Shown in pieces: positions 6,343-37,148 of a stretch of DNA of 64,000 bases. Source of the stretch: Methanofastidiosum sp. GTDB taxonomy: Archaea > Methanobacteriota_B > Thermococci > Methanofastidiosales > Methanofastidiosaceae. The first letter of the stretch is position 1. Every line of letters starts with the position of its first letter. The notes under the pieces were generated by a model. That model did not search any database and was not told the origin of the DNA. It saw only the letters and a program-made list of their open reading frames with translations. The position numbers were made by a program, and so were the translations under genes. Location of the stretch: contig JAHKLW010000019.1 of assembly GCA_020854815.1 (NCBI GenBank), positions 10,571-74,570 of the forward strand. Direction: 5' to 3'.

Positions 6343-6417
6343 GGGACCGTGGGGTAGCTTGGCCCATCCTTTTGGCTTCGGGAGCCAGAAACCTGAGTTC
6401 AAATCTCGGCGGTCCCA
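6343..6417 (+). tRNA. tRNA-Pro (anticodon CGG)
   Basis: I hand-folded it. Acceptor stem GGGACCG/CGGTCCC, U8, D-loop with A14/G18G19/A21, anticodon stem TTGGC/GCCAG with loop TTCGGGA (U33, CGG, G37), T-arm CTGAG-TTCAAAT-CTCGG, discriminator A. CCA is not encoded, and there is no intron. An AT-rich TATA-like stretch lies about 25 nt upstream. Confidence 0.7.
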
Positions 6418-9312: not shown

Positions 9313-9654
9313 TTATTTTAAAAGTGCAGGATCTCTTTTATCGATATATTCTTTTATTGCTTCTTCGACAGTTGAACTTCTTTCCCCAGTATTTAGTGCT
9401 ACTTTTATGGATCTTGGAATGCCCAACTTATCTTTTATTAACGTGTCTAGAGCATTTACAAGTTCTTCGTCAAGTGAAAAACTTTTAATTATCTTTTTCT
9501 TTTTATATAGAGACTTTTCTTCTTCTTTATGTGTAAAGCGTTGGGTCATTATTTCCTTTTTTTCCTTCTCGTGATCAATTTCCTCTTTAGTTAGGATAAC
9601 TCTTCTTTGTATTTCTTTCTCCAAATCATTCTTTAACCCGTCAGTTAAGGCCAT
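9313..9654 (-). CDS. Ribbon-helix-helix DNA-binding protein (ParG-like partner)
   Basis: C-terminal 'SFSLDEELVNALDTLIK' is a typical RHH beta-strand and helix. It lies immediately downstream of parA, with a TGATG start/stop overlap. The start is ambiguous between 9681, 9657 and 9654. Confidence 0.55.
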   Translation of the reverse strand: MALTDGLKNDLEKEIQRRVILTKEEIDHEKEKKEIMTQRFTHKEEEKSLYKKKKIIKSFSLDEELVNALDTLIKDKLGIPRSIKVALNTGERSSTVEEAIKEYIDKRDPALLK

Positions 9655-10397
9655 CATATCCCCTCCAATACTCTTTTGCACAATTGAATATAATCATAGG
9701 CTCCTCTTGAGTTCAAAGAATGTTCAAATATAGTCTTTCCAAGAGCGAAACTTTCAGATAATTTAGTATCAATTCGGATATATGGGCTTATTATGCCCTT
9801 AAAATGGTCCATCCCATCAAAGAATTCAAGATATTCTTTAGTTCTTTTTACCCTTTCATCTACAAATGTTGGAACAATAAGGTCTATTTTCAGATCTTTT
9901 TGGAAGTCTTCTCTTAAATCATAAATAAGTTTGTCAACTTTGAAAAGACCTTTTACTGAAAGATATTCCATTGAGACTGGCACAAGTAGCTTTTTACAAA
10001 AATTTAGTGCATTTTCGTTAAGTATTCCGAGTCCTGTTTGACAGTCTATGAGTGCAAAGTCATAGTTAATTCCTTCTAGGCGCTTCTTTAAAGCATTCTC
10101 TCTATTTCTCCAACCTACCATTTCTAGGGCAACTTGAGATATTGTTTCGTCTGATGCCAATAAATCCAAGTTCTTTCTAGCACCCACAATACATTCCTCA
10201 AAAGGTGCTTCGTCTTTTAGTAGATGATAAATGCTTTTAGTAAATTTAACTCCCAAACATTCTGCATCGTTACCTTGATCATCTATATCTATAATGAGTA
10301 CCTTTTTTCCAGTGAGCGCAAGCGCATGCCCTAGGTTTATAGTCGTGGTAGTTTTTCCAGTTCCACCTTTTTGATTGTATATGGCAATAGTTTCCAA
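9654..10397 (-). CDS. parA: ParA/ParF-type partition ATPase
   Basis: Deviant Walker A 'KGGTGKTTTTINLG' and 'IIDIDDQGN'. The likely start is the TTG at 10397, 4 nt after AGGTGA, giving '(M)ETIAIYNQKGG'. The track's ATG at 10433 adds 12 non-conserved residues. Confidence 0.8.
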   Translation of the reverse strand: METIAIYNQKGGTGKTTTTINLGHALALTGKKVLIIDIDDQGNDAECLGVKFTKSIYHLLKDEAPFEECIVGARKNLDLLASDETISQVALEMVGWRNRENALKKRLEGINYDFALIDCQTGLGILNENALNFCKKLLVPVSMEYLSVKGLFKVDKLIYDLREDFQKDLKIDLIVPTFVDERVKRTKEYLEFFDGMDHFKGIISPYIRIDTKLSESFALGKTIFEHSLNSRGAYDYIQLCKRVLEGI

Positions 10398-10435
10398 GAT
10401 ATCACCTATATTAATAAATATTATATAACACATAT

Positions 10436-10470
10436 TAGTTATTAATTGATATGTATTATATAATAACTAA
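10436..10470. repeat. Two TTAGTTATTA(A) motif copies in inverted orientation upstream of parA
   Basis: TTAGTTATTAA at 10436-10446 and its reverse complement at 10461-10470. Confidence 0.35.
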
Positions 10471-10637
10471 TAACATTATTTATAAGTGTTTTGGCCCTAA
10501 AAATGCATGTTTTTAACTGTTTAGAGTGGGCTAGTTAACGAAGAAACAACATTTAGACCAAGTATATAAATGAAGTGTAAAATATCTTCTATATGTAATA
10601 ATTAATAAATAATAAATATTAGCTAATAGCTATTAAT

Positions 10638-10931
10638 CTATTCAATTAGATTCCCATCTGGGTCTATTAGAATACCTTTTTTCTCAAGATTCTTTCTTAA
10701 TCTCCAAAAAGAAGTAGTTGAAATGCGTTTTTTTGCTTCTTTGAGAAATTTTTCAGCGTTTTTAGGGCTAATAAAGTGTCTTTTAACGAATTCTGTTTCT
10801 ACAAGCATTATCCTATTTTTTCTTCCGCCGCTACCTTTAGATTCTATTAATTTTATTTCACGTTCAATAGCTCTTATCAGTTCTTCTCTGGAAATACCAT
10901 ATTTTTTTGATAACTGGGTTTCTATATCCAA
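10638..10931 (-). CDS. Small basic putative DNA-binding protein
   Basis: 97 aa and Lys/Arg-rich, with a helical 'GISREELIRAIEREI' segment. No confident family assignment. Confidence 0.3.
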   Translation of the reverse strand: MDIETQLSKKYGISREELIRAIEREIKLIESKGSGGRKNRIMLVETEFVKRHFISPKNAEKFLKEAKKRISTTSFWRLRKNLEKKGILIDPDGNLIE

Positions 10932-11921: not shown

Positions 11922-13088
11922 TCATCTTTTCACCTTAACACTCTGTTTGATAAGACCTTCCCACTTGTTGCCTTCCAAGCCCAGTTCAATGCCTGCCATC
12001 TGTGCGGGTGTCTTGCCATTCAAAGCTTGGTGTGGTCTTATGAAGTTGTAATACGCCTTGAAGCCGTCAACAAAGTCCTTTGAAGGCTCGACCTTCTTCA
12101 ATCCTCTCTGCACTTTGTTCCTCTGCCTCATCGAACCGTGAAGCCTTTCTATCTTGTTGTTGTTCCGTTCCTTGTTTGTGATTGCTATTTCCCTGATGTG
12201 CGTTGTGTTCCTCCCGTCGCCTTTTCGGTGTGTCTGGAACTCTTTTCTTACCGCTTCTTGGTAGGCATTAAGGCCGTCAGAAACTAAAATGGTTGGCGTA
12301 ATTCCAGTCACTTGCTTTGCCTCTTTCATCGGCAGTCTTGCGGTATCGACATCCCTTGTCTTACCTTCCGAAATCATGGACGAAATAAGAAAGCGTGTAT
12401 CCGTGTCCATCAAGTTCCAGAGCCAGTTCCATTCACCGTTACACTTCAAGGCCATCTCGTCTATCGCCCACATGCCGGACACGTCGGGAGTAAGTGTCCT
12501 TGTATAGTCTGAAATCAAGGATAGGTATTTTCTTATCCATCGTGATACTGTGGACTGATTGACGGTCACGTTGTAGAACTGTGCCAAGTGCTGTGCTATG
12601 TCGTTCTGTGACACGCCTTTGAAGTACAAATCAAGAGAGAGGACTATTACCCTCTGGTCGCTTGTGTTGTACTTGAACCCGTCATCAATAGAGAATCGCT
12701 TGTTACAGTCCTTGCACTGGTACATCTGCTTCATGTTGTTCTTATTCTTTCTAAATCCTTTCTTTGATAGATTGGTAGAGTTGCAGTTCGGGCATTTTGT
12801 TTTTGTGTCCTTTTTTGGTGTGAATATTCTTGCCTTTGCTTCATCTTCAATCCTGTTTTTCAACTTCATCCAGAATTTCACGGCGTTGATATGCTTGCAC
12901 TCTGCATGCCTATAGAAGTGGTCGGGACAATTGCATGTCCAGACTTTGTAGCCGTGCCTTACCAAATAATACCCTTTTCCACTTTGCGAGTGGATTTTAA
13001 ACTTGTCGTGACTGACCTCGATTGGTTCGTCACCCTTGGCTATGATTGCATAGCCCCTAATCATTCTACTGTTTGTGGTTAATACCAT
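11922..13088 (-). CDS. DDE transposase, IS6-family-like with N-terminal SWIM/zinc-ribbon extension
   Basis: Catalytic triad context 'WAIDEM', 'ILVSDGLNAY', and 'NNNKIERLHGSMRQR', an IS26-like E-x6-R signature. N-terminal 'CNCPDHFYRHAECKH' and 'CPNC...CKDC' zinc fingers. This block is about 47% GC against about 32% around it. Confidence 0.7.
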   Translation of the reverse strand: MVLTTNSRMIRGYAIIAKGDEPIEVSHDKFKIHSQSGKGYYLVRHGYKVWTCNCPDHFYRHAECKHINAVKFWMKLKNRIEDEAKARIFTPKKDTKTKCPNCNSTNLSKKGFRKNKNNMKQMYQCKDCNKRFSIDDGFKYNTSDQRVIVLSLDLYFKGVSQNDIAQHLAQFYNVTVNQSTVSRWIRKYLSLISDYTRTLTPDVSGMWAIDEMALKCNGEWNWLWNLMDTDTRFLISSMISEGKTRDVDTARLPMKEAKQVTGITPTILVSDGLNAYQEAVRKEFQTHRKGDGRNTTHIREIAITNKERNNNKIERLHGSMRQRNKVQRGLKKVEPSKDFVDGFKAYYNFIRPHQALNGKTPAQMAGIELGLEGNKWEGLIKQSVKVKR

Positions 13089-21837: not shown

Positions 21838-24800
21838 TCAATTTAGTTTTTTGATTCCAATCAAGAACTTGTCACCGTCTATTTCCCATTCTTTATCAAT
21901 ATAGTTATTATCTTTGGAAAATAGTAAGATTTTGCTTCTTGTTTCTCTCATAATGTAGTCTTCATGATTCTTTAAGTCGGATTCAAAGCTAGATTCAACG
22001 TAAGAGTTGATGTATTCCTCTACATTTAGATTTGCTTGTTTTCGCATTTCCTGTATTCTTCTTATAACTTCTCTTGCTATGGCCTCAGACTTCAGTTCTT
22101 CTGTAATTACTGTGTAAAGATAGACTTTTCCATTCTCAAACTCGCTTAATTCGTACCCTTGCGGTATAAGATAGTTAAAGTTAACATCTTCAAGGGATAT
22201 TTCAAATCCATCAAGATTGAAGAGGCCGTCTTTTTCAAATCCGGATTTTATGAGACAAGGATTATGAGACTTTAATAGCTCGACGACTTTTTTTGCATCT
22301 CCCTTAAATTTAGGGCCAATTGATTTATGATTTGGAAGGATTTCAAGCTCCTGTATTACTTCACCAATTACTATCTCTTTAACATTAATCTGTTTCTTCA
22401 TTATGCCAGATAATGTCTGAACAGCTCTTTTCACATTCTCGTCTTGAGTTTCAACTATGGCCTTCGAAATCGGCCATCTTAACTTAATACCAGCTTTTTG
22501 TCTGGCGTGAAGAGTGCCCTCAATTATGTTTCTAAGTATGGACATGTTTGATTCCAACTCAGAATCAATCAACGAGGAATCATGCGCATCCCAGTCTGAA
22601 AGATGGATTGAGGATTCTCCGACAAAGTTTTTGTATATAGCTTCAGAAATAAAGGGTGATATAGGCGCTAATAGTTTTGATAATCTCTTGAATACATAAA
22701 ATGAAGTAACATAAGCACTTATCTTTTCCTTGTCGTCACCCTCAAGCCACATCCTTTCCCTCACAAGACGAATATACCATCTTGAAAGATCTTCTAATAT
22801 GAATTCCTTTAATTTTCTAGGTATAAAATGTAAATCAAGTGTATCAAAGTTTTCTTCAACTTCTTTTGTAAGAGTATTTATTCTAGAGAGTATCCAACTA
22901 TCCTCGTCTTTTAGATATTTTTTTAGATCCTTTAGGGGTGTATTGATATCAAAGTTATCAAGAGACATGTAAAGGGTAACAAACTTGTAGGCATTCCATA
23001 ATATGTTAAAGGTTCTGTAAATACTTTCAACGTTCTCCCAGTTGAACTTTAGTTTATCCCAGGGTGCAATCTCCCATAGTAAATAGAATCTTGTGACATC
23101 AGCACCATATTTTGCTATGACATCTTTTGGATCAACTACATTTCCAAGAGACTTTGACATTTTCTGCCCAAACTGATCCAAGACGAAATCATTCATCAAA
23201 ACTTGATTGTATGGGGCTCTGTCAAAAACTATGAAGCTTTCAAGCATTAATGTGTAAAACCAACCTCTGGTCTGATCAAGCCCCTCAGTTATGAAATCCA
23301 TTGGAAAAAGTTCATTGAATTTCTCACTATTTTGAGGGTATCCTAGAGAACTCCATGTTGAAGCTCCTGAATCAAACCAGACATCCGCTATATCAGGAAC
23401 ACGCTTCATCTTTTCAGAACATTTAGGGCAGTTTAGAGAAACTTCATCGATATAGGGTTTATGAAGATCCTCTGGAACTTTTCCTCCTAACGATTTTATC
23501 TCATCAATAGAAGAAACAACAGTAATATTTCCACATGAGCATTCCCATATAGGCAAAGGTATACCCCAGAACCTCTGTCTTGAGATACACCAATCTCTTG
23601 CACCTTCAATCCAGTTGTGAAACCTCTTTTCACCGGCCCAATCAGGTACCCATTTTACTTTTTTATTTTCTTTCAATATCTGGTCTTTGATAGCCTCTAC
23701 CTTTACAAACCACTGGTCAGAAGCTCTGTATAACAAAGGAGATTTACATCTCCAACAGTGAGCGTATCTGTGAAAGACTGAATCTCTGAAAACAAGAAAT
23801 CCTTTGTCTTCAATATCATCGATAATAAGATCATTGGCATCTTTGATGTAGATGCCCTTATACTTCCCAGCTTCTTCTGTGAAGTTTCCAGTCCCATTTA
23901 CAGGAGAGAATATTGGAAGCTTAAATTCTACCCCGGCACTGTAATCTTCAGGCCCGTGCCCTGGGGCTGTGTGAACGCAACCAGTACCATCCTCCAATGT
24001 TACATAATTTGTAAGGATAATAGTATGTGCATTTGGCTCTTTGAACTGTTTGTGTATTGGTACATCATCATCAAGTATGTGCCTATATTTAAGGCCCAAT
24101 AGAGCCTCTCCTTTCAAAGTTTCAATGACCTCATAATCATCAACTTCGAATAAGTTCATTAGTTTGTCCAAAAGCTCCTTTGCAACTATCCATACCTCAT
24201 TCCCTGCTTTTACCCTGACATAATCATACCTTGAGTTTACTGCAATAGCAACATTTGCTGGAATAGTCCATGGAGTTGTTGTCCATATAATAATATATTC
24301 ATCTTTTCTGTCAACTAAGGGGAATTTGACATAAATTGAGTCATCTTCTACATCTTTGTACTCATCAGTTGACTCATAGCCGGAGAGTGGTGTTTCGCAT
24401 CTTGGACACCAAGCAACTGTGGCCTTGCCTTTATACAAAAGATTTTTTTCCCATGCTTTCTTAAAGAAGTACCAAGAGGATTCTATATATGAATTAGATA
24501 AGGTCATGTAAGGATTTTCAAAATCTCCAATCATTCCAAATCTCTTATAAAAATCAATCCATATCTTAAGGAAAGATAAGCCCCTCTCCTTGCATGCTTT
24601 TATGAATTTTTCAGTTCCTATTTTTTCTATATCGCTTTTTGTTTGGGTGCCTAATATTTCTTCAATTTTTACCTCTATGGGTAGCCCGTGCATATCAAAT
24701 CCTGGTTGATGCCAAACATTGTATCCATTCATTGACTTGTATTTCAGGACAGGATCTCTCAAAGCTCTTGTCCTAGCGTGACCAATATGTGGCAATCCAT

Positions 24801-24951
24801 TCATATACGGTGGCCCATCAAGAAAGAAATATTTAGGGCCATTTGCTCTTAACTGCTTTAATTTAGCATAGATGTCTATATCGCCCCAATCCTTTAGTAT
24901 TTTTGTTTCTAAAGAAACAGGATTATAGTCTTCAGGAACCTCAGAAACCAT
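21838..24951 (-). CDS. ileS: Isoleucyl-tRNA synthetase
   Basis: 'PPYMNGLPHIGHA' (HIGH) and 'KMSKS'. 1037 aa is the archaeal IleS size, and it has an editing domain and a C-terminal zinc region. Confidence 0.9.
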   Translation of the reverse strand: MVSEVPEDYNPVSLETKILKDWGDIDIYAKLKQLRANGPKYFFLDGPPYMNGLPHIGHARTRALRDPVLKYKSMNGYNVWHQPGFDMHGLPIEVKIEEILGTQTKSDIEKIGTEKFIKACKERGLSFLKIWIDFYKRFGMIGDFENPYMTLSNSYIESSWYFFKKAWEKNLLYKGKATVAWCPRCETPLSGYESTDEYKDVEDDSIYVKFPLVDRKDEYIIIWTTTPWTIPANVAIAVNSRYDYVRVKAGNEVWIVAKELLDKLMNLFEVDDYEVIETLKGEALLGLKYRHILDDDVPIHKQFKEPNAHTIILTNYVTLEDGTGCVHTAPGHGPEDYSAGVEFKLPIFSPVNGTGNFTEEAGKYKGIYIKDANDLIIDDIEDKGFLVFRDSVFHRYAHCWRCKSPLLYRASDQWFVKVEAIKDQILKENKKVKWVPDWAGEKRFHNWIEGARDWCISRQRFWGIPLPIWECSCGNITVVSSIDEIKSLGGKVPEDLHKPYIDEVSLNCPKCSEKMKRVPDIADVWFDSGASTWSSLGYPQNSEKFNELFPMDFITEGLDQTRGWFYTLMLESFIVFDRAPYNQVLMNDFVLDQFGQKMSKSLGNVVDPKDVIAKYGADVTRFYLLWEIAPWDKLKFNWENVESIYRTFNILWNAYKFVTLYMSLDNFDINTPLKDLKKYLKDEDSWILSRINTLTKEVEENFDTLDLHFIPRKLKEFILEDLSRWYIRLVRERMWLEGDDKEKISAYVTSFYVFKRLSKLLAPISPFISEAIYKNFVGESSIHLSDWDAHDSSLIDSELESNMSILRNIIEGTLHARQKAGIKLRWPISKAIVETQDENVKRAVQTLSGIMKKQINVKEIVIGEVIQELEILPNHKSIGPKFKGDAKKVVELLKSHNPCLIKSGFEKDGLFNLDGFEISLEDVNFNYLIPQGYELSEFENGKVYLYTVITEELKSEAIAREVIRRIQEMRKQANLNVEEYINSYVESSFESDLKNHEDYIMRETRSKILLFSKDNNYIDKEWEIDGDKFLIGIKKLN

Positions 24952-24992: not shown

Positions 24993-25931
24993 CTAATCTT
25001 TTCTCTCTAAAACGAACTTTGGCACTGCGTGTTTTAATGGATCAAAATATTCTATATTCTTTATTTCAACACATTTCATTGAAACTTTAGAATGAAGCGT
25101 AGACGGGAGTCTCAATATTCTTTTTACGTCAACAGTGACTTTTCCATCAACTAGAGACCCATTAATTCGCTCTATATGTTGTAAGAATTCATTTTTTGTC
25201 TTATCCCCAATCCCTTTAATATCTAAAAAATCAACGTGGCGGTCTTTTATTTTTGAGATAATATTTTCTTTCTCTAAAAGAAGTGTATCTACGATATTTT
25301 TACTAAAAGGAAGATCCTTATCTTTCATTTTACCAAAGGTCAGAATAAACATTTTTCTGTAAACGGCGGGATACCCATGAGACAAGAAAAGGTCTTTGGG
25401 TTTTTTGGAACCTGTTACATATTCTAGTACTTCTGATCTTCTCTCAAGCGGGAGTACTTCTTTATCAACTACTCTTAAGTGATAGCCTCTACCAGAATAT
25501 ACTAAAAATAATCGTTTTATTCCCAAATCCCCCATCATTGTGTCCCGTATATGTAAAACGATTTCCTTGGCTTCCGATAGACATTTTTCACATACATTTC
25601 CTTGTTTGCAATCACAGGTTTTAACTACTAGATCTTTTGCATCAATATCAAAAACTAGTTCTGCGCCTTTCCAATCTTCTCGATTTTTAGGTTTAGAGTA
25701 ATATGAAACACTGGTACAAACTGCATAAGGAAAGTTTTTAATCAGAAAATCTGAAAATTGGCCAACGTTATCAAATCCTTTGTACCTGTCATTATATCCG
25801 TTTCCATCATGATCAAACGCAAATTCCCTTTCAGTTATTCGTTCGACTATAAATTCAGGAACATCTTTCTCTTTCCATTCTTCATGGTAATATAGTTTTC
25901 TCTCTCTGAGAGAAGCTTCCTTAAACTCCAT
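24993..25931 (-). CDS. priS: DNA primase small (catalytic) subunit PriS
   Basis: 'REFAFDHDGNGY' and 'AELVFDIDAKD' acidic catalytic motifs of archaeo-eukaryotic primase. Confidence 0.8.
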   Translation of the reverse strand: MEFKEASLRERKLYYHEEWKEKDVPEFIVERITEREFAFDHDGNGYNDRYKGFDNVGQFSDFLIKNFPYAVCTSVSYYSKPKNREDWKGAELVFDIDAKDLVVKTCDCKQGNVCEKCLSEAKEIVLHIRDTMMGDLGIKRLFLVYSGRGYHLRVVDKEVLPLERRSEVLEYVTGSKKPKDLFLSHGYPAVYRKMFILTFGKMKDKDLPFSKNIVDTLLLEKENIISKIKDRHVDFLDIKGIGDKTKNEFLQHIERINGSLVDGKVTVDVKRILRLPSTLHSKVSMKCVEIKNIEYFDPLKHAVPKFVLERKD

Positions 25932-25939
25932 AAATCACC

Positions 25940-27673
25940 TTATTTATGAGTTAAAATAACTGTAACTCCCTTCGAATCTATTTTGTCGACTCTTATAAAT
26001 CCAAAACGTTCAAATTGCACGATGTCGCCTTCTTTTAGAGATGCAATGCCTTCTTCTCCGTATCCGTTAATAGTGGTAAGAGAATTTGGATTAATATCCT
26101 CCCCTTCATATAAAATTCCACGGACTATAACAGATACATTGACATATTTATTAGATACCCATTGTATCTTTTTTATTTTAGAAAGTTCATCTTTAGAAGA
26201 TTTTTCGTCTGTGTGCATAGCTTTGATCAAATTAGGCTGGATATCTATAACGAAGATGTTGTATAGATCTTTCAATCGGAGTATCTGACCTTTAATTATT
26301 TCCTTGAAATCATTTCCTGAAATGTAAAATTTACCATTTATATTAATATTTCTAAAGCCCCTATCTATATCTGGATGGCGCCTTAATTGAATAATTTGAT
26401 ATGACGCATCGATGACGTCAAGAGCCATGGGATCGGCGACGAAGTAGTACCTATCAGAAGTAGAATCGATTACTTTTCTGTTAAGAGATTCGATAAGTGA
26501 CCAATCTATCTCAGGTTCTGATTTTGAAAGGCCAATCTCTTCGGCCACCATATGAATAGCTTCTGGGGTTATGCCTCTTCTTTTAAGACCACGAATTGTT
26601 ACAAGTCGTGGGTCATCCCATCCGGAGACAACATGTTCTTCAATCAAAGGTCTAATTAGTCTTTTAGATGTTGGCGCTCCCTTTACTGTAAATCTAGAAT
26701 ATTCAATAATCTTTGGATTTCTTAAATTTAGAAGACCTCTTATATAATCTTGTAATTCTATTCTAAGTGTAAATTCATTACTTCTGAGTACATGTGTTAC
26801 CCCAAGAACAGAATCTTCAATTGCGCATGCAAAGTCATAAACAGGCCATATCCTGTATTTGTCTCCTTGTATCGGGTGAGGATGATCAACGACTCTTAGC
26901 ATAGTTGGATCTCGCATTACAGTATTTTTCGAAGTCATATCTCCCCTAAGTCTAAGAGAATATTTTCCCTCTTCGGCAGTTTCCATTTCTTTCCAAAGAG
27001 AGAGATTGTCTTGAATTGAGTTAGAAACACACGGACAATCTTTTGAATCGTACCTAAGTTTGGATACATACTCTGCATCACAATTGCAAACATAAGCCCT
27101 ACCCAAATTAATTAAATCTAAGGCATACTTATAGTAAAGTTCCATATCGTCTGACATATTTCGTTCTTCATCCCAAGTTATTTTCAGCCATTTTAAGTCT
27201 TGTTTGATGGCATCATAATATTCAAGTTTTTCCTTTTTGGGATTTGTATCATCAAATCTTAGAATTACTTTACCCTCGTATTTTTTAGCATAATAATAAT
27301 TGAAATAAAATGACATGCCATGCCCGATGTGTGGATATCCATTTGGCTCTGGAGGGAGTCTTGTTACGACTTTTCCCATTTCTGCCCCTTCAAGTGGAGG
27401 GAGTGCTTTTGGGCCTTCTTTTTCCCTTGGTTTTTCCGAAAAATGTTCAGGATATACCTGTCTTAGTTTATATTCTATATCTTTGTTAGACATTTTTGAA
27501 ATCTGAGTAATTGCTTCTTCTACTGATGAGATTACATCCTTTGCCTGTTTTCTCATTTCAGGTAACTCAGCCATGATTTTTCCAGTAACGGCTTTAGAAT
27601 TTGGAGTACCGCCATACTGAAAGGCATTAATAAGAGCATATTTAAGTGCAAGTTTGCGTAAATCTTCACTCAT
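25940..27673 (-). CDS. gltX: Glutamyl-tRNA synthetase (archaeal type)
   Basis: 'PEPNGYPHIGHG' HIGH region; 577 aa is the archaeal GluRS size and domain order. Confidence 0.85.
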   Translation of the reverse strand: MSEDLRKLALKYALINAFQYGGTPNSKAVTGKIMAELPEMRKQAKDVISSVEEAITQISKMSNKDIEYKLRQVYPEHFSEKPREKEGPKALPPLEGAEMGKVVTRLPPEPNGYPHIGHGMSFYFNYYYAKKYEGKVILRFDDTNPKKEKLEYYDAIKQDLKWLKITWDEERNMSDDMELYYKYALDLINLGRAYVCNCDAEYVSKLRYDSKDCPCVSNSIQDNLSLWKEMETAEEGKYSLRLRGDMTSKNTVMRDPTMLRVVDHPHPIQGDKYRIWPVYDFACAIEDSVLGVTHVLRSNEFTLRIELQDYIRGLLNLRNPKIIEYSRFTVKGAPTSKRLIRPLIEEHVVSGWDDPRLVTIRGLKRRGITPEAIHMVAEEIGLSKSEPEIDWSLIESLNRKVIDSTSDRYYFVADPMALDVIDASYQIIQLRRHPDIDRGFRNININGKFYISGNDFKEIIKGQILRLKDLYNIFVIDIQPNLIKAMHTDEKSSKDELSKIKKIQWVSNKYVNVSVIVRGILYEGEDINPNSLTTINGYGEEGIASLKEGDIVQFERFGFIRVDKIDSKGVTVILTHK

Positions 27674-28128: not shown

Positions 28129-28599
28129 GTGAATCAAATGACTTGGTTTGATGTGATGGAAGATATGAGAAAAATGCAGGAAGAAATTGAGAGAGCGTTT
28201 CCTGAGTTTTGGAGAAGAACTCCTCTGCTAATTCCTGGAGAGTCTAAAGAAGGAGAAGTAGTAAAATATAGAAGACCATTGACAGATTTGAAAGAAACTG
28301 AAAATGAATTAATAATGGTTCTTGAAATGCCCGGTATAACAAAAGATGACATTGACATAAAAGTAACAGAAGACTCAATTGAGATAAAAGCAGAAAAGAA
28401 ATATGAAACTAAGGAAGAAGATGAGAAAAAAGGATATTTTTTCCAGGAAAGAAGATATCAAGGATTTTACCGATCAATTCCATTGCCATCTGGAATAAAG
28501 GCTGAAGAAACCGAAGCTAAATTTGATAATGGCATACTAGAGATAACGATGAAGAAAGCAGAAGAAAAAGAAAAGGCGCTAAAAGTAAATGTCAAATAA
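28129..28599 (+). CDS. Small heat-shock protein (Hsp20/alpha-crystallin family)
   Basis: Alpha-crystallin domain 'ELIMVLEMPG...KAEKKYE...GFYRSIPLP...NGILEI'. Confidence 0.85.
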   Translation: MNQMTWFDVMEDMRKMQEEIERAFPEFWRRTPLLIPGESKEGEVVKYRRPLTDLKETENELIMVLEMPGITKDDIDIKVTEDSIEIKAEKKYETKEEDEKKGYFFQERRYQGFYRSIPLPSGIKAEETEAKFDNGILEITMKKAEEKEKALKVNVK

Positions 28600-28627: not shown

Positions 28628-30070
28628 CTAAACAAGTCTATGTTGAATTGGAGGTACATAACTAGCTACTTTCTTGATTTTAAAATCATTTTCTAAAAGA
28701 GATTTAATCTGTAATGGCGGAACTCCCAAGGATATTTCTCTTGTTCTCCCATATCTTCCCTTACTAACAACTTTTGCGTTTAGAATACCAAGCATATCCA
28801 GTTCTGATATCAAATCAGATACTCTTCTTTGAGTAAGATTATCAAGTTTCAAAATATTGCTTAAGTCTTTGTATATGTTAAATACATCTCCTGTAATAAT
28901 CTCCCCAGGCATGTATTTTTCTAAAAGGTATACAGAATAAAGAATAAGTTTTGATTGTGTGGGAAGTGTTTTAATTACTTCAGAAATTCTATCCTGTTCA
29001 ATTCTATCCTTTGCAACTCTTACGTGAGGTTCTGTAACTTTTTTGGCATTTTGTCTTTCAGCTATCTCACCGGCTGTTCTTAAGAGGTCAAGAGCCCTCC
29101 TAGCGTCTCCGTGCTCTTGAGCTGCGAAAGCTGCACAAAGTGGTATTACACCAGGAGTGATTGCTGATTCATTAAACGATATTTTTGACCTATCTTCCAA
29201 TATATCCATTAGTTGCGGTGCATCATAAGGCGGAAATATAATTTCCTCTTCACCAAGAGAGCTCTTCACTCTAGGGTCCAAAAACTCGATGAATTTTAAA
29301 TCATTTGAAATGCCTATGATACTGACCCTAGCGTTTTCCAAGTCCCCATTAATTCTCGTTAAATTATAAAGAACATCATCTCCTCCTTTTTTGAGGAGCT
29401 GGTCAACTTCATCAAGAATAATAATAACAAGTTTCTTTTCACTATCAAGACTCTGAGAGAAAACGTCATAGATTTTATCTGTAGGCCAACCCGTAAGGGG
29501 AACTGACTGACCAAAGTATTCGGATAATTTTGATAGTAGCCTATATTGAGTATCTACTACTTCACAATTAATATAAATAAAAGTAATTGGCATATCCATT
29601 TTAACATTTGAATTAAGATCAGGTTTTGGAAGTCCTGTATTACAATCAATTGAAGGAGAAGTTTTCAAAAATGCCTTCCCACCAACTTTTTTTACAAGGC
29701 CGTTTCCAACATATTTTACAACGACTGTTTTACCTGTCCCAGTTTTACCATAAACAAAAATATTTGAAGGTGTTTCACCTTTAAGTGCGGATACTAATAT
29801 AGCTGCAAGTTTTTCAATTTCATTTTTTCTATGTGGTAATATTTCAGGAGTATATGAATGGCGTAAAACTTCTTTATTTTTAAAAATTGAATTAGACAAA
29901 AGAAGTTCATCAAATAAGTCATCGAGTGATGATTGTTTATTTGACATGAAATCTTCAACACTTGAAGCAATAGTATATTGTAGCTCCTCTTTGTCTGAAA
30001 CTTCAGAGAAAGTTTTTGTCTTAGAATTTTCGTCGTATTTTAAAGGTATTCCTGCGTTGTCACCATTCAA
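28628..30070 (-). CDS. orc1: Orc1/Cdc6 replication initiator
   Basis: 'LPHRKNEIEKLA', Walker A 'GKTGTGKT', Walker B 'IILDEVD', a sensor region, and a C-terminal winged helix. An N-terminal extension of about 70 aa. Confidence 0.9.
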   Translation of the reverse strand: MNGDNAGIPLKYDENSKTKTFSEVSDKEELQYTIASSVEDFMSNKQSSLDDLFDELLLSNSIFKNKEVLRHSYTPEILPHRKNEIEKLAAILVSALKGETPSNIFVYGKTGTGKTVVVKYVGNGLVKKVGGKAFLKTSPSIDCNTGLPKPDLNSNVKMDMPITFIYINCEVVDTQYRLLSKLSEYFGQSVPLTGWPTDKIYDVFSQSLDSEKKLVIIILDEVDQLLKKGGDDVLYNLTRINGDLENARVSIIGISNDLKFIEFLDPRVKSSLGEEEIIFPPYDAPQLMDILEDRSKISFNESAITPGVIPLCAAFAAQEHGDARRALDLLRTAGEIAERQNAKKVTEPHVRVAKDRIEQDRISEVIKTLPTQSKLILYSVYLLEKYMPGEIITGDVFNIYKDLSNILKLDNLTQRRVSDLISELDMLGILNAKVVSKGRYGRTREISLGVPPLQIKSLLENDFKIKKVASYVPPIQHRLV

Positions 30071-30119
30071 TTATATCACACTACTACTTTACTAATAACT
30101 ATCCTTTTTATATATTTCT

Positions 30120-30145
30120 CCCACCCCCTTATTTCCTTTGGAGAT
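30120..30145 (-). repeat. Origin recognition box (ORB-like) 1
   Basis: The reverse complement ATCTCCAAAGGAAATAAGGGGGTGGG carries a TCCA..GGA dyad plus a G-string, like archaeal ORB elements. Confidence 0.55.
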
Positions 30146-30149
30146 TTAC

Positions 30150-30395
30150 TTTAATAAAAAAAATTTGATTGAAAAGAAAAGAATCTGCACTATTTTAAAG
30201 AAACAGAGGTTAATTTGGCCTTTTCTATAATAATATCTTTTAGTTAAAATTTAAGATTATATAGATTTAATCTGTGTTTGTTTGCTCAAATGATTTTTAT
30301 GATAGGAAAAATTTATATAGTTAAAAAAACATATTTAATTAGGAATCTATAAAAATTTGTATTAGTTAGTAAAAACAAATAATAAAAATTTGTTT
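30150..30395. other. AT-rich duplex unwinding element of predicted oriC
   Basis: About 245 bp of more than 85% A+T, lying between inverted ORB-like boxes and next to orc1. Confidence 0.5.
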
Positions 30396-30420
30396 CGAGT
30401 GGAAGTAGAGGGGTATCCCT
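30396..30420 (+). repeat. ORB-like box 2 (mini-ORB)
   Basis: CGAGTGGAAGTAGAGGGGTATCCC shares a GGAAnTA..GGGGT core with box 1, in the opposite orientation. Confidence 0.5.
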
Positions 30421-30458
30421 GTAAATAATAATTTAAATGAATATTCCATTATTCTATT

Positions 30459-31355
30459 ATGCAAGACAATGATACTTACTTTGAAAGCTATCAAAAAGCT
30501 GGAGATATACTTAAGATTGTAAAAGAAGAATCAAGAAAACTAGTTTTAAATAATTACAAAGTAGTTGACTTGGTAGAATTTATAGAAAATAAAGTCATTG
30601 AAATGGGTGGGCTGCCAGCCTTTCCATGTAATATTTCTATTAATAGCGTAGCTGCACATTATACTCCGAATATCGATTCAGATTTAGTTCTTAAGAGTGG
30701 CGATTATGTAAAGATCGATATTGGATGCCATATCGATGGATGTATTGCTGATACTGCATATACTGTTAAAGTCGATGAGAATGATGATGATCTTATAAAG
30801 GCTTCACAAGAGGCCTTAAAAAACGCAATAGCAGCAGTCGAACCCGGCGTTAAGACCAATTATATTGGAAAGATAATAGAAGAAACAATTAAAGATTTTA
30901 ATTTTAATCCGATAAAAGAACTTTGTGGTCATGGTCTTAGGCCTTATGTTCTCCATTCAGGGATCACAATACCAAATTACAATAGTAACATTGGAACAAA
31001 ACTTAAGGAAGGAGACACTTTAGCAATAGAGCCTTTTGCATCCACTAAAGCTGGAAAGCTTAAGACTTCTGAAGAAGTTTACATTTTTAAATATCTTCAA
31101 GATAGACCCCTAAGAGATCCTGGCTCAAAGAAACTATTGAATGTTATTAAACAAAACTATAGAACTTTGCCTTTTGCAGAGAGATGGCTTGAAAAAAATC
31201 ATGCTGGCCTTAAAATTAACTTCTCTTTGAGAACACTTATTAGGGCAAATGTTATTTATCCTTATAATGTATTATTAGATAGTGAAGGAGGATTGGTGTC
31301 TCAGGCTGAAAATAGCTTGATTGTAACTTCAAGTGGCTGTGAAGTATACACCTAG
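30459..31355 (+). CDS. map: Methionine aminopeptidase, type 2 (archaeal)
   Basis: Pita-bread fold motifs 'AAHYTP', 'DYVKIDIGCHIDG', 'GHGL', and the typical archaeal size of 298 aa. Confidence 0.85.
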   Translation: MQDNDTYFESYQKAGDILKIVKEESRKLVLNNYKVVDLVEFIENKVIEMGGLPAFPCNISINSVAAHYTPNIDSDLVLKSGDYVKIDIGCHIDGCIADTAYTVKVDENDDDLIKASQEALKNAIAAVEPGVKTNYIGKIIEETIKDFNFNPIKELCGHGLRPYVLHSGITIPNYNSNIGTKLKEGDTLAIEPFASTKAGKLKTSEEVYIFKYLQDRPLRDPGSKKLLNVIKQNYRTLPFAERWLEKNHAGLKINFSLRTLIRANVIYPYNVLLDSEGGLVSQAENSLIVTSSGCEVYT

Positions 31356-31999: not shown

Positions 32000-33818
32000 A
32001 ATGATTTATAGTTATACAGGTAAAATATTACATATAGATCTTACAACAGGAAAAACTGAAGTAGAAACTCCAAATGAACAATTTTATAGAAAATGGCTTG
32101 GTGGAAATGGATTTGTTATAAAATACCTTTATGATGGTCTAAAAAAAGGAACTGATCCTCTAGCTCCTGAAGCAGTTTCTGTTTTTGCATCTGGCCCTTT
32201 GAGTGGTACTTTGTCGCACGGTGCAGGTAGAACCCACTTTGGAGCGAAATCTCCTCAGACGGGATTACTTGCCGATAGTAGCGCTGGTGGAGGGCTTTCT
32301 GCAATGTTAAAATATGCAGGATATGACGCAGTTGTAATTAAAGGAAAAGCTGCTTCACCCGTAATGATAGTTATTAATAACGATAAAGTTGAGATAAGAG
32401 AAGCAGAGCGATTCTGGGGGCTTTTGACAATAGAAACACAACACAGACTCAAAAAAGAATTAACGCCAGAATATAAAATAGCCTGTATAGGACCAGCAGG
32501 TGAAAAGTTGGTACCTATGACTTCAGTTATTACTGATACTAGAGTTGCCGGAAGAAGTGGTAACGGGGCTGTTTGGGGATCAAAGAATCTTAAAGCTGTA
32601 GCTATATATGGGGACAACGACGTTAAAGTAGCGGACATGGAAAAAGTAAAAACATTATATGCTGAATTTGCTCAGAAGGCGAAGGAAACTTTAGTAGGTC
32701 TTTCAAAATACGGAACTACCGCTCTCCCTGCAAGTATTAATGCATTTGGAGGTATGGGAACAAGAAATAATCAGTTCGAAATATTTGAGCATGTTGATGG
32801 GATCGGAGGAGAAACACTTAATACCCAACATTTAATTAGACATAGATCATGTTTTAGTTGCTGTATCCACTGTGCAAAAGACTTCAAAGTCAACAAATGG
32901 GACAGTGTTTCTGAAGGGCCTGAATATGAAACTCAATTTTCTTATGGTAGTATGCCAGCTATAGCTGACGCTGATTATGTAATTGCGGCAGACAGACTTT
33001 CAGATGAGTATGGAATAGATACCATTTCTACAGGCGTAACTGCTTCAATGGTCATGGAGTTAATGGAGAGAGGTCTCTTAACAGAAAAGGACACTGGTGG
33101 CAAAACATACAAATTTGGCAATGGGGAAGATCTCTTAGAACTAGTTAGAATAATTGGAGAAAAGAGAGGGAAATTTGGAGAATTACTTGGAAAAGGGACA
33201 AGAGCACTAGCAGAAAAATTAGGCGGCGACGCTTATAAGTACGCATATAATGTTAAAGGCCTTGAACCTGCAGGTCACTCCCCAAGAGCCCAAAAGACAA
33301 TGTCGGTAGGATATGCAACCTCACCAAGAGGAGGAAGCCACCACGATGCAAGACCAATTGAATATGGATTACCTCCTGAGAAGAGAAACACGACAGAAGG
33401 GAGAGCATTGAATGCTTTTAATACACAGAACTGGACATGCCTAGGGGATTCACTTGTAGTTTGCCACTTTGAAGAGAAGATATATGGCACATCTGTTGCT
33501 CAAGTGCATTCGGACTGGATAAATGCAGTAACTGGGTGGGACACAACTCTTGACGAAGTAAAATTAATGGCAGAGAGAATATATAATCTTGAAAGATTAT
33601 TTACTATCAGAGAATCGGGAAAAGCAAGAACTGGTGACACGCTTCCATGGAGAGTCATGAACGAGCCAATCCCATCAGGAACTTCAAAAGGAATGTATAC
33701 TACACAAGAAGAACTTGACAAAATGCTCGATGAATACTATGATCTTAGGGGCTGGGACAGAAAAGGAGTTCCAACAAAGGCAACATTAAAAAGACTTGGA
33801 TTAGAAGAGTACTCTTAA
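31992..33818 (+). CDS. aor: Aldehyde:ferredoxin oxidoreductase (tungsten-containing AOR family)
   Basis: N-terminal 'YTGKILHIDLTTGK...WLGGNGF', a C-x-x-C cluster, and the full-length AOR pattern at 608 aa. Confidence 0.9.
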   Translation: MNKMIYSYTGKILHIDLTTGKTEVETPNEQFYRKWLGGNGFVIKYLYDGLKKGTDPLAPEAVSVFASGPLSGTLSHGAGRTHFGAKSPQTGLLADSSAGGGLSAMLKYAGYDAVVIKGKAASPVMIVINNDKVEIREAERFWGLLTIETQHRLKKELTPEYKIACIGPAGEKLVPMTSVITDTRVAGRSGNGAVWGSKNLKAVAIYGDNDVKVADMEKVKTLYAEFAQKAKETLVGLSKYGTTALPASINAFGGMGTRNNQFEIFEHVDGIGGETLNTQHLIRHRSCFSCCIHCAKDFKVNKWDSVSEGPEYETQFSYGSMPAIADADYVIAADRLSDEYGIDTISTGVTASMVMELMERGLLTEKDTGGKTYKFGNGEDLLELVRIIGEKRGKFGELLGKGTRALAEKLGGDAYKYAYNVKGLEPAGHSPRAQKTMSVGYATSPRGGSHHDARPIEYGLPPEKRNTTEGRALNAFNTQNWTCLGDSLVVCHFEEKIYGTSVAQVHSDWINAVTGWDTTLDEVKLMAERIYNLERLFTIRESGKARTGDTLPWRVMNEPIPSGTSKGMYTTQEELDKMLDEYYDLRGWDRKGVPTKATLKRLGLEEYS

Positions 33819-33954
33819 AAAAATATATTTTTCTATTTTAATTAATTTTTAAATCAACTATTTTTATATTATATTTCATTAATATCTCTTTAATTACTCA
33901 GTTTATTAATAATAGAAAAGTTTATATATAAACTAATAATTATATGTTTAAATA

Positions 33955-35073
33955 GTGGTAGTTATTATGAAGGATAAATCATTTTTCATAGTTTTAATTT
34001 TATTTTTCTTAGGAATATTTTTCATGCCAATCAATTCTCCAGTATTTCAAGAATCATTATTTAGCGCCTTTTACCTTCTTCACGACTATGCAAGATTACA
34101 TTTTCTGACATGTTTAGTTCCTGCAATGTTTATCGCTGGCGCAATAAGTATTTTTGTAAAAAAAGATGTTGTATTGAAATATCTTGGCAGTGAAAGTAGT
34201 AAACTTTATTCTTATTCAATAGCATCTGTTTCAGGATCTATACTTGCGGTATGTTCTTGTACCATACTCCCACTATTTGCATCAATTAGGAAAAGAGGTG
34301 CAGGATTAGGGCCTGCAATAACTTTCTTGTTTTCAGGACCTGCAATAAATATCGCCGCTATATTTCTTACTTTTAGTGTTTTAGGATTTGATATTGGATT
34401 AGCTAGAGTTATTTCTGCAGTTGGGCTGTCCATTATTGTTGGTTTATCAATGGCCTTAATTTTTAGAGAGAGATCGGAAGGTGGCAAACTTTATTTAGAA
34501 GAAAGTGCACAAGTTTCAGTTTCCTCAAAAATATTATCTATGTTTTTCTTATCATTAATAATGATCCTAGTAGTAAATGGTTTATCAATAGGCCTGCCTC
34601 TGAAATATACTCTCACAGGGATTCTAGTTTTAATCGTGGCTTTAATCGTGATTTTTAAGTTTTCTAAAGAAACTTCAAAGTCATGGCTCAATGAAACATG
34701 GCATTTTGCAAAAATGTTAATCCCTCTTCTTTTTATTGGTGTCTTTATAGCCGGATTCATAATGCCATTACTCCCACAACATTTGATAGAGCAGATAGTA
34801 GGTAAAAATAATCTCTTAGGAAATCTAATCGCTTCTGTCTTTGGAGCATTTATGTACTTCTCAACGTTGACTGAAATACCTATATTACAAGCACTAATAT
34901 CAAAAGGAATGGCCAAAGGCCCAGCTCTGGCCTTATTATTGGCTGGCCCTAGTTTGAGTTTACCTAATATGCTCGTGATTAGAAGGGTATTGGGTTCCAA
35001 AAGAACTATAGTTTATGTAATCCTAGTTGTTATATACTCCACAATCGCCGGATTTATATTTGGTATTTTATAA
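33955..35073 (+). CDS. Predicted permease (DUF318/UPF0718-like, 2x duplicated TM domain)
   Basis: About 10 TM helices and an internal 'SGSILAVCSCTILP' motif. This family often neighbours ArsR and redox-active disulfide proteins. Confidence 0.5.
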   Translation: MVVIMKDKSFFIVLILFFLGIFFMPINSPVFQESLFSAFYLLHDYARLHFLTCLVPAMFIAGAISIFVKKDVVLKYLGSESSKLYSYSIASVSGSILAVCSCTILPLFASIRKRGAGLGPAITFLFSGPAINIAAIFLTFSVLGFDIGLARVISAVGLSIIVGLSMALIFRERSEGGKLYLEESAQVSVSSKILSMFFLSLIMILVVNGLSIGLPLKYTLTGILVLIVALIVIFKFSKETSKSWLNETWHFAKMLIPLLFIGVFIAGFIMPLLPQHLIEQIVGKNNLLGNLIASVFGAFMYFSTLTEIPILQALISKGMAKGPALALLLAGPSLSLPNMLVIRRVLGSKRTIVYVILVVIYSTIAGFIFGIL

Positions 35074-36449: not shown

Positions 36450-36650
36450 GTGCCATTATTTATATATTGATATATAAAGTTTTTCAAAAATATTTTCAAA
36501 AGATGATTTGTTGGATTAAATTATAAAACAATCTTTGATTTTGAATTATCAAAAACGTATTGTTTTGGATAATACCAAAATATTTATAAATATATTATAA
36601 ATAACTACTTATATGTTTATATATGAAATGCTACTCTGGAGGAATAAATA

Positions 36651-37148
36651 ATGAGAAAATACTTATCAATCCTTCTTATAATTACAACTTTATTAATATT
36701 TTCTGCATGTGTTAGCAACAGCGCAGAGAAGCCACAAACGAATACACAACCAAATACAAATCAAGGAAACACTAACACTGTTCCAGAAAAAGTAAATGTA
36801 TTAAAAGTTGAAGTAATTCATTTTCATCCAAGAGTAGGATGTGTCAGTTGTACTACATTAGGTGCATACACAGAAGAAACAGTTAATAAATATTTTTCAA
36901 AAGAGCTCCAATCTGGAAGAATTACTTTTAGACATGTTAATTATGAGCTAACAGAAAATCAGGAACTTGTCTTATTATATAGACCACCCGGCTCTGCATT
37001 GTGTATAGGGGTATACGATGATCAAGGTCACCTTTTCATTGAAGAAAACTATGGTGGCTGGTATCGACTTAACAATAAAGATACTTTTTTTCCCTATATG
37101 AAACAGCTTATTGAAATGAGACTGAATGGGGATCTTACCAAAATATAA
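36651..37148 (+). CDS. Lipoprotein with CxxC motif
   Basis: Signal peptide plus lipobox 'IFSAC', and 'VGCVSCTT'. Confidence 0.4.
   Translation: MRKYLSILLIITTLLIFSACVSNSAEKPQTNTQPNTNQGNTNTVPEKVNVLKVEVIHFHPRVGCVSCTTLGAYTEETVNKYFSKELQSGRITFRHVNYELTENQELVLLYRPPGSALCIGVYDDQGHLFIEENYGGWYRLNNKDTFFPYMKQLIEMRLNGDLTKI

Follow-up and report, generated by a model that had tools for sequence, protein, structure and literature searches.

INTRODUCTION

Origins of chromosomal replication in archaea have been defined as AT-rich regions that are flanked by origin recognition boxes (ORBs) and lie beside an initiator gene (PMC4010727). In Pyrococcus abyssi and P. furiosus, oriC is located upstream of orc1/cdc6, a single gene in Pyrococcus, and combines AT-rich DNA with two inverted long ORBs. 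These inverted ORBs bind Cdc6, and the TTCC core of their TTCC...GAA dyad matters for binding (PMC1904270). In oriC1 of Sulfolobus (Saccharolobus), an AT-rich duplex unwinding element (DUE) beside orc1-1 has ORB2 and ORB3 in inverted orientation on its two sides, and both ORBs are required in vivo; one Orc1-1 monomer occupies each ORB with a fixed polarity, and MCM is recruited between them (PMC12141716). The Sulfolobus DUE also contains, midway, an essential conserved non-ORB motif named ucm. It is the binding site of UBP, which is found only in Desulfurococcales and Sulfolobales (PMC12141716). Haloarchaeal oriC1 regions (Haloferax, Haloarcula, and Halobacterium) have inverted ORBs with a terminal G-string, an AT-rich stretch, and cdc6/orc1 (PMC4010727). 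The possession of such a sequence is no proof of its use, since Thermococcus kodakarensis needs neither Cdc6 nor its origin to replicate (PMC5663688).

Here we analyze a stretch of 64,000 nucleotides (64 kb) of Methanofastidiosum sp. DNA, called the window below, with position 1 at its first letter. A sequence-only reading of this DNA had proposed a replication origin beside its orc1/cdc6 gene. We come to the same prediction, likewise from sequence, on the strength of inverted ORBs, an orc1 gene of the ORB-binding clade, and an architecture that is conserved across the class. We propose that positions 30102 to 30439 are an oriC1-type chromosomal replication origin of "Candidatus Methanofastidiosum," and we put the probability of this reading at roughly 0.8. 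Every sequence-level property of an Orc1-dependent archaeal origin that could be tested was found at the locus, which supports the proposal, with the polarity of its strand-composition switch as a caveat. A literature search found no description of a Methanofastidiosum origin, which does not prove absence.

RESULTS

Gene neighborhood and the Orc1 initiator

The genes around the locus are as follows.

28628-30070, minus strand: orc1/cdc6 initiator, 480 aa (Pfam Cdc6_C, Cdc6_lid, and AAA)
30459-31355, plus strand: map, M24 methionine aminopeptidase (Pfam Peptidase_M24, E = 4.6e-28)
28129-28599, plus strand: hsp20 (Pfam), between orc1 and gltX
25940-27673, minus strand: GluRS (gltX) (Pfam)
24993-25931, minus strand: PriS (Pfam)
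21838-24951, minus strand: IleRS (Pfam)

The start codon of orc1 is TTG, with a Shine-Dalgarno-like GTGAT at 30075-30079 in a block that is conserved in the genus. The map gene is transcribed divergently from orc1 and is the same neighbor in same-genus loci. The sequence-only reading had placed this divergent gene after the second box and priS and gltX on the far side of orc1; Pfam identified all three where they were expected, with the amendment that hsp20 intervenes between orc1 and gltX.

The Orc1 protein encoded in the window is 96% identical to the orc1/cdc6 product of a metagenome-assembled genome that NCBI names Methanofastidiosum, a match that assigns the window to "Candidatus Methanofastidiosum," an uncultured genus of the class Methanofastidiosia. 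Its closest solved structures are 2V1U (Aeropyrum pernix ORC1, from the ORC1-ORB4 complex; E = 1.4e-107) and 2QBY_A (S. solfataricus Orc1-1; E = 6e-105), both of them ORB-binding initiators crystallized on origin DNA. Matches to Orc1-3 (E = 4.7e-44) and to the Orc2 type (1e-18) were far weaker. The recognition helix of the winged-helix domain (TQRRVSDLISELDMLGIL) and the wing (GRYGRTREISL) are conserved, and their residues are invariant among 23 relatives. By these sequence comparisons, the orc1 adjacent to the boxes is a member of the ORB-binding (Orc1-1/Cdc6-1) clade. An N-terminal extension of ~45 residues and an insertion of ~30 residues after Walker A distinguish the protein from 2V1U and 2QBY_A, which lack both.

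Two inverted ORBs flank an AT-rich spacer

Three elements make up the core of the orc1-map intergenic region.

30120-30145, minus strand: proximal ORB (box 1), read on the minus strand as ATCTCCAAAGGAAATAAGGGGGTGGG
30146-30392, no strand: AT-rich spacer, presumed duplex unwinding element, 82.4% A+T over 30146-30395
30393-30416, plus strand: distal ORB (box 2), TTTCGAGTGGAAGTAGAGGGGTAT, in the orientation opposite to box 1

The letters of the window confirm both boxes at the positions given by the sequence-only reading (30120-30145 and 30396-30414) and in opposite orientations. Box 1, whose plus-strand letters are CCCACCCCCTTATTTCCTTTGGAGAT, has its G-string toward orc1 and its dyad toward the spacer; the dyad attributed to it earlier, TCCAAAGGA, is present. 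For box 2, the plus-strand letters at 30396-30414 are CGAGTGGAAGTAGAGGGGT. In the ORB consensus a short linker joins the TTCC..GGAA dyad to a GGGG(T) G-string, and the boxes conform to it except in the left half-dyad of box 2, which is degenerate (TTCG, not TTCC); its right half and G-string are intact. As oligonucleotides, the boxes take the forms TCTCCAAAGGAAATAAGGGGGT and TTTCGAGTGGAAGTAGAGGGGT in the window and TCTCCAGTGGAAATAAAGGGGT and TTTCCACTGGAAATAAAGGGGT in the canonical version of the genus.

Exact matches to GGAAnTAnnGGGGT in the 64 kb are limited to box 1 and box 2, on opposite strands. The core that the boxes had been said to share can be written as GGAANTANNGGGGT, and it matches perfectly only at these two sites (n = 2 in the window). 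When one mismatch was allowed, there were five matches against 0.88 expected, a count reached in 0 of 100 shuffles; the remaining three all fall within coding sequence. The dyad-only pattern TCCANNGGAAA occurs 21 times in the window against 22.6 expected. Since it is not enriched, the dyad alone carries no weight.

We also scanned the window with an ORB weight matrix trained on 233 ORBs from 72 loci outside Methanofastidiosum, using 200 shuffles. Box 1 had the top score at 29.2 bits (training median, 31; best of 200 shuffles, 23.1). Box 2 came second with 13.5 bits, ahead of the next match in the window at 8.0, but its score exceeds the shuffle maximum by no more than about one standard deviation and is not significant on its own. 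The low score arises because a C-to-G change turns the TTCC core into TTCG; in Pyrococcus, this core matters for Cdc6 binding (PMC1904270). Support for box 2 comes from where it lies, from how it is oriented, and from the canonical ORBs of relatives to which it is orthologous. The search for further copies that the sequence-only reading had called for was carried out with both the core and the matrix, and no additional ORB or mini-ORB was found elsewhere in the 64-kb window. A degenerate middle ORB at about 30218-30231, as seen in relatives, was considered and rejected; its matrix score did not exceed background, and the resemblance was too weak.

The inverted ORBs lie on opposite strands, 250 bp apart (30146-30395), around DNA that is 82.4% A+T and peaks at 87% in a 100-bp subwindow. 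The AT-rich character claimed for this spacer thus holds; the figures given for it (about 245 bp and more than 85% A+T) do not. AT-richness and helix stability are not distinctive of the spacer within the window. It ranks fourth among the least stable 250-bp stretches, after the intergenic segments 33814-34063, 36455-36704, and 10399-10648, the first two of which are also more AT-rich. Rfam detected no RNA family in the orc1-map intergenic region, and the sole match in the window was a tRNA-Pro at 6343. The word AAAAATTTG has seven copies in the window, three of them in the spacer and all three on the plus strand; the third spacer copy directly abuts the distal ORB.

Conservation of the architecture among relatives

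For comparison we used 15 same-genus loci (Orc1 93 to 99% identical) and 6 class-level relatives (Orc1 64 to 69% identical). A profile scan of contigs with the Orc1 alignment yielded one close relative (L001) among the matches listed; the other 79 scanned loci served as the ORB training and comparison set.

Both the elements and their arrangement are conserved in the 15 same-genus and 6 class-level loci. Upstream of orc1, every relative has an ORB on the reverse strand, then an AT-rich spacer, then one or two ORBs on the forward strand, AAATATATAAAAAGG, and the orc1 start. Intergenic identity to the window ranges from 60 to 78% across 13 distinct same-genus sequences (93% for L092), with a mean conservation of 81% over the whole intergenic region. 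Within it, the proximal ORB and the BRE/TATA of orc1 form a 47-nt block with 98% column conservation in the 13 distinct sequences, and the distal ORB lies inside a 40-nt block that is 91% conserved. In 14 same-genus loci, the sequence aligned with box 2 of the window is a canonical distal ORB (GTTTCCAnTGGAAATAAAGGGGT). Class-level relatives, which have different neighbor genes, all possess an AT-rich spacer upstream of orc1 that is bordered by inverted ORBs of canonical sequence (TTCCAGTGGAAAcaAAGGGGT). Farther afield, at least one upstream ORB was present in 66 of 77 loci of euryarchaeal Orc1 orthologs from other orders. The reverse-then-forward arrangement with G-strings pointing outward was found at 27 of the 77 loci and the opposite arrangement at 2, so the ORB geometry of the window is the norm.

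The boxes of the window are nonetheless weaker than those of every relative, and the substitutions, three of which are in the proximal ORB, fall at positions that are invariant in relatives. The proximal ORB has the variants CCAAAGG and AAGGGGG, found only in the window, where the 12 other distinct genus sequences read C(C/G)CAGTGG and AAAGGGG. The distal ORB variant TCGAGTGG is confined to the window and its near-twin L092.

An ordinary AT-rich region between divergent promoters might by chance contain two G-rich words that resemble ORBs. The lack of enrichment of the dyad word, the several other intergenic regions that are equally AT-rich, and the modest margin of box 2 over the shuffle maximum are all compatible with this explanation. 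Coincidence would, however, have to put the two top-ranking ORB matches of the whole window only 250 bp apart, inverted, and beside orc1, and to do so at sites whose orthologs in 21 related loci are canonical ORBs. We regard chance resemblance as effectively refuted, with a negligible probability.

Comparison with described origins

The window shares with the Pyrococcus oriC the position upstream of orc1/cdc6, the two inverted ORBs in AT-rich DNA, and the TTCC...GAA dyad core (PMC1904270). The differences lie in the boxes and in the surrounding genes. Pyrococcus ORBs are 34 bp long with a longer linker between dyad and G run (TTCCAGTGGAAATGAAACTCTGGGGGG), whereas the linker in the window is short. 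Pyrococcus has numerous mini-ORBs of 13 bp, as well as another cluster of ORBs within dp1, and the window has two ORBs and neither of these features. Downstream of orc1, Pyrococcus has polD, in contrast to hsp20, gltX, and priS in the window. With no mini-ORBs, no dp1 cluster, and no polD beside orc1, the locus in the window is not an oriC of the Thermococcales type.

Some class-level relatives keep parts of the Thermococcales-type layout. Its gene order (RPA, origin, orc1, polD DP1, and DP2) is retained in the class-level loci L085, L087, L088, and L115. In L001, an extra canonical ORB is located downstream of orc1, in an open reading frame at the position that DP1 has in those relatives.

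Like oriC1 of Sulfolobus, the locus has inverted ORBs that flank an AT-rich presumed DUE beside an orc1-1-type gene (PMC12141716). The Sulfolobus spacer is ~100 bp compared with 250 bp in the window, and a third ORB is present in Sulfolobus oriC1. In the middle of its spacer the window, too, has a conserved element, which parallels ucm in position only; ucm is a binding site for UBP (PMC12141716), whereas the element in the window resembles a BRE/TATA. With haloarchaeal oriC1 the locus has in common the inverted ORBs, the terminal G-string, the AT-rich stretch, and the adjoining cdc6/orc1 (PMC4010727), and the skew pattern described below is that of Haloferax volcanii ori3 (PMC12999951). Of the solved structures, the A. 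pernix ORC1-ORB4 complex (2V1U) is the closest, and its recognition helix and wing are conserved in the Orc1 of the window.

Promoter-like elements at the boxes and in the spacer

Four further elements were identified in the intergenic region.

30102-30119, minus strand: BRE/TATA-like putative promoter of orc1, AGAAATATATAAAAAGGA, immediately next to the proximal ORB on its G-string side
30304-30320, plus strand: central BRE/TATA element in the middle of the spacer, AGGAAAAATTTATATAG (consensus)
30338-30358, plus strand: conserved block 3' of the central TATA, covering the predicted start site
30420-30439, plus strand: BRE/TATA-like putative promoter of map, TGTAAATAATAATTTAAATG, 4 nt past the distal ORB

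The BRE/TATA of orc1 does not vary among the 16 same-genus sequences and is almost unchanged in class-level relatives. It fits the promoter pattern of the window itself and is a putative promoter. At this junction the ORB G-string GGGGTGGG is followed by AGAAATATATAAAAAGGA, and at the junction on the map side GGGGTATCCC is followed by TGTAAATAATAATTTAAATG. The TATA block of map (30423-30437) is 99% conserved within the genus, and this element, too, probably acts as a promoter. The ATG of map follows the BRE/TATA after only ~20 nt; its mRNA is therefore probably leaderless.

Given that both ORBs abut BRE/TATA elements, an alternative hypothesis is that the boxes are mainly Orc1 operators, serving autoregulation of orc1 and control of map, at an origin that is a relic or dormant and not in normal use, while replication begins at another site or through recombination. 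The degeneration of the window ORBs relative to those of all relatives fits this idea, and T. kodakarensis provides an example of an archaeon that dispenses with Cdc6 and oriC (PMC5663688). Autoregulation alone, on the other hand, would not need an ORB-spacer-ORB geometry that is conserved across the class, nor a distal ORB 250 bp away from the orc1 promoter. We consider this hypothesis unlikely, for these reasons and for those from strand composition given below.

The central BRE/TATA points toward the distal ORB and away from orc1, with a predicted start site at ~30342. It matches the BRE/TATA pattern found upstream of many genes in the window, and its 15-mer GAAAAATTTATATAG occurs twice in the window, once in the middle of the spacer and once 31 nt upstream of the gene starting at 143. 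Across the class, the element is about 75 bp away from the distal ORB; its TATA-like core is 70 to 83 nt from the dyad of that ORB in 11 of the 12 lineages examined, among them class-level relatives with a different neighbor gene. The neighbor genes have proximal promoters of their own. In other orders, TATA-like words are common in the spacers, and none was found at a consistent distance. The block at 30338-30358, for which the genus consensus on the minus strand is AAATTTTTATAAAATCCCATT, has a mean column conservation of 93% in the 13 distinct same-genus sequences. The central element could simply serve map as a distal promoter and provide it with a long leader; a further role is considered in the Discussion.

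Strand composition changes at the locus

We regressed the plus-strand skew of each gene on gene orientation and on the side of the locus over the 64 kb. Raw GC skew is dominated by coding-strand effects (orientation coefficient of 0.155 for all positions and 0.41 for first positions), and because it mostly follows gene orientation, it is uninformative until corrected. For third-position GC (GC3) skew, the side term was -0.095 ± 0.014, and the profile of |t| over possible splits peaked at 29 to 30 kb. The best GC3-skew changepoint falls in the orc1-map interval (t = -6.7), a value reached by 0 of 500 gene-order permutations, and 17 of 20 same-strand gene blocks conform to the step. First-position skew changes with the same sign (t = -4.0), and noncoding DNA shifts from +0.070 on the left to -0.051 on the right. 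Second codon positions and A/T skew showed no step at the locus in the window. The coincidence of the GC3-skew step with the ORB-spacer-ORB region suggests that the locus is tied to fork direction.

The plus strand is G-rich to the left of the locus and C-rich to the right, which gives a local maximum of the cumulative third-position skew and a local minimum of the cumulative first-position skew. The GC-skew check proposed in the sequence-only reading, applied here to the window, therefore found a step exactly at the locus, but with a third-position cumulative maximum in place of the anticipated minimum. According to the bacterial rule, a skew polarity of this kind (a cumulative maximum) is a terminus signature.

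Under that rule, the locus would be a zone where forks converge, in effect a terminus-like switch, perhaps with ORB-bound Orc1 blocking or pausing forks that come from an origin elsewhere. The polarity of third positions and noncoding DNA agrees with this model, as does gene orientation at long range; most coding bases beyond ~10 kb point toward the locus, and the coding bases co-directional with forks leaving the locus amount to 46% on the left and 32% on the right over the whole window. The immediate flanking genes (~10 kb on the left and 5 kb on the right), however, diverge from the locus, and a terminus beside orc1 and its ORBs would, to our knowledge, be without precedent, which counts against convergence. 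Same-genus loci have the same skew sign as the window even when nonorthologous flanking genes are included, which also argues against it.

Comparison with more distant lineages is less uniform. Three class-level relatives have the canonical, opposite sign in their ±10-kb flanks (+0.088 ± 0.027 at L115 and +0.037 ± 0.017 for the three loci pooled), and the opposite sign at the ORB locus of L115 is a point in favor of fork convergence in the window. No skew signal was detected in the pooled ±6 kb around 77 other Orc1 loci (0.011 ± 0.012 for low-GC and -0.011 ± 0.009 for high-GC loci).

Skew polarity differs among archaea, though; at ori3 of H. volcanii, a mapped and active origin, first-position skew is reported to have a minimum and third-position and noncoding skew a maximum (PMC12999951). 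The pattern in the window is the same, and its reversed polarity therefore does not contradict archaeal origin activity. On balance, we find fork convergence very improbable. The polarity and the long-range gene orientation, which by bacterial rules are unlike those expected of departing forks, could also be cited for the operator hypothesis. Against it stand the match to an active H. volcanii origin and the composition step itself, which a dormant origin would not give exactly at the locus. Our confidence in the origin reading is not higher mainly because the skew sign differs between lineages.

DISCUSSION

The proposed origin is ordinary in kind, an instance of the well-known ORB/Orc1 element, and what makes it worth following are the promoter-like element at its center and the reversed sign of its skew. 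The homologous systems of Sulfolobus (oriC1) and Pyrococcus (oriC) (PMC12141716, PMC1904270, PMC4010727) lead us to infer a mechanism in which Orc1/Cdc6 monomers would bind the two inverted ORBs with fixed polarity, the dyad half facing the spacer and the G-string facing outward. The bound initiators would recruit MCM hexamers onto the 250-bp AT-rich spacer, the spacer duplex would open in vivo, and two forks would depart in opposite directions. Orc1 occupancy would also be expected to repress the orc1 and map promoters and thereby to make the initiator autoregulatory, because the G-string end of each ORB abuts the BRE/TATA of the gene that reads outward.

We speculate further, and with considerable doubt, that the central BRE/TATA is a functional part of the origin, a euryarchaeal counterpart of ucm/UBP, and that the genus has reversed its replication-linked G/C asymmetry relative to its sister lineage. 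Binding of TBP/TFB, or a short transcript within the unwinding element, might help to open the origin or to space the two MCM loading sites. A literature search found no promoter described within the unwinding element of an archaeal origin, which does not prove absence. If this speculation is true, the skew reversal would point to another division of labor or repair bias at the fork.

The Methanofastidiosia are uncultured methanogens, and a placed origin would be a reference for closing and orienting their genomes. It would also serve estimates of growth rate from metagenome coverage (peak-to-trough ratios) and aid comparative work on the rearrangement of the Thermococcales-like cassette RPA-oriC-orc1-polD. 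The reversed skew step bears on what shapes archaeal nucleotide skews (PMC12999951), and the central element bears on whether lineages outside Sulfolobales have ucm-like accessory origin elements (PMC12141716).

Nucleotide skew at the predicted origin

The orientation-corrected GC skew of third codon positions, followed over window positions 1 to 64000, changes sign exactly in the intergenic region between orc1 and map (30071-30458), and first codon positions and noncoding DNA show a weaker switch at the same place. To the left of this step the + strand is rich in G, and to its right it is rich in C; this polarity is the reverse both of the bacterial rule and of that in L115, a locus from a class-level relative.

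An IS240/IS6-like transposase gene of the DDE type, encoding an rve_3 domain, occupies 11922-13088 on the - strand, in a stretch with 44.8% GC compared with about 34% elsewhere; this is probably an insertion sequence. It is adjoined by a gene for a ParA/MinD-like ATPase (9654-10433, - strand). Just past the left end of the window, the near-identical contig L112 encodes a phage-type integrase (614-1408), directly left of the counterpart of the window gene at 143-658.

Elements within the AT-rich spacer

The 250-bp spacer between the two predicted origin recognition boxes (ORBs) contains a promoter-like element and a repeated word.

30304-30358, + strand: consensus BRE/TATA-like element (exact consensus match GAAAAATTTATATAG, mid-spacer) and downstream conserved block
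30159-30167, 30351-30359, and 30384-30392, + strand: copies of AAAAATTTG

The GAAAAATTTATATAG sequence is the same as that in the promoter of the gene starting at 143. The element is oriented away from orc1, and the conserved block that follows it lies at the predicted start site. The distance from the TATA-like core to the distal ORB is 70 to 83 nt in 11 of 12 lineages, including class-level relatives that have other neighbor genes. Of the seven copies of AAAAATTTG in the 64 kb, three fall in the spacer, each read on the + strand. The last of these three directly adjoins the distal ORB and, like the second, is contained in ATAAAAATTTG, an 11-nt direct repeat with a spacing of 33 nt.

ORB substitutions and the Orc1 protein

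Both ORBs of the window (30120-30145 and 30393-30416) carry changes at positions that are otherwise invariant across the genus. The proximal ORB reads CCAAAGG and AAGGGGG, where the counterparts in 12 other distinct sequences are CCAGTGG or GCAGTGG and AAAGGGG; in the distal ORB, TTCG replaces TTCC, a change otherwise found only in the same-genus near-twin L092. These substitutions may be genuine strain variation that weakens binding, or else sequence error.

Compared with two archaeal Orc1 proteins solved with DNA (2V1U and 2QBY_A), the window Orc1 (gene at 28628-30070, - strand) has an N-terminal extension of about 45 residues and, past the Walker A region, an insertion of about 30 residues. 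The first codon of the extension is TTG, with GTGAT in front of it. Differences between relatives in this extension lie mostly at third codon positions, which suggests that it is translated.

Gene order in class-level relatives

The Thermococcales-like order RPA, origin, orc1, polD DP1, and DP2 is kept in L085/L115, L087, and L088, and in all of them a mini-ORB separates the TATA of orc1 from its start codon. In L001, another class-level relative, an additional canonical ORB lies downstream of orc1 (position 2198), inside an unannotated open reading frame that sits where those loci have DP1. The Thermococcales-like layout, the mini-ORB, and the extra downstream ORB are all lost from the genus of the window, in which hsp20, gltX, and priS lie downstream of orc1 in place of the relatives' layout.
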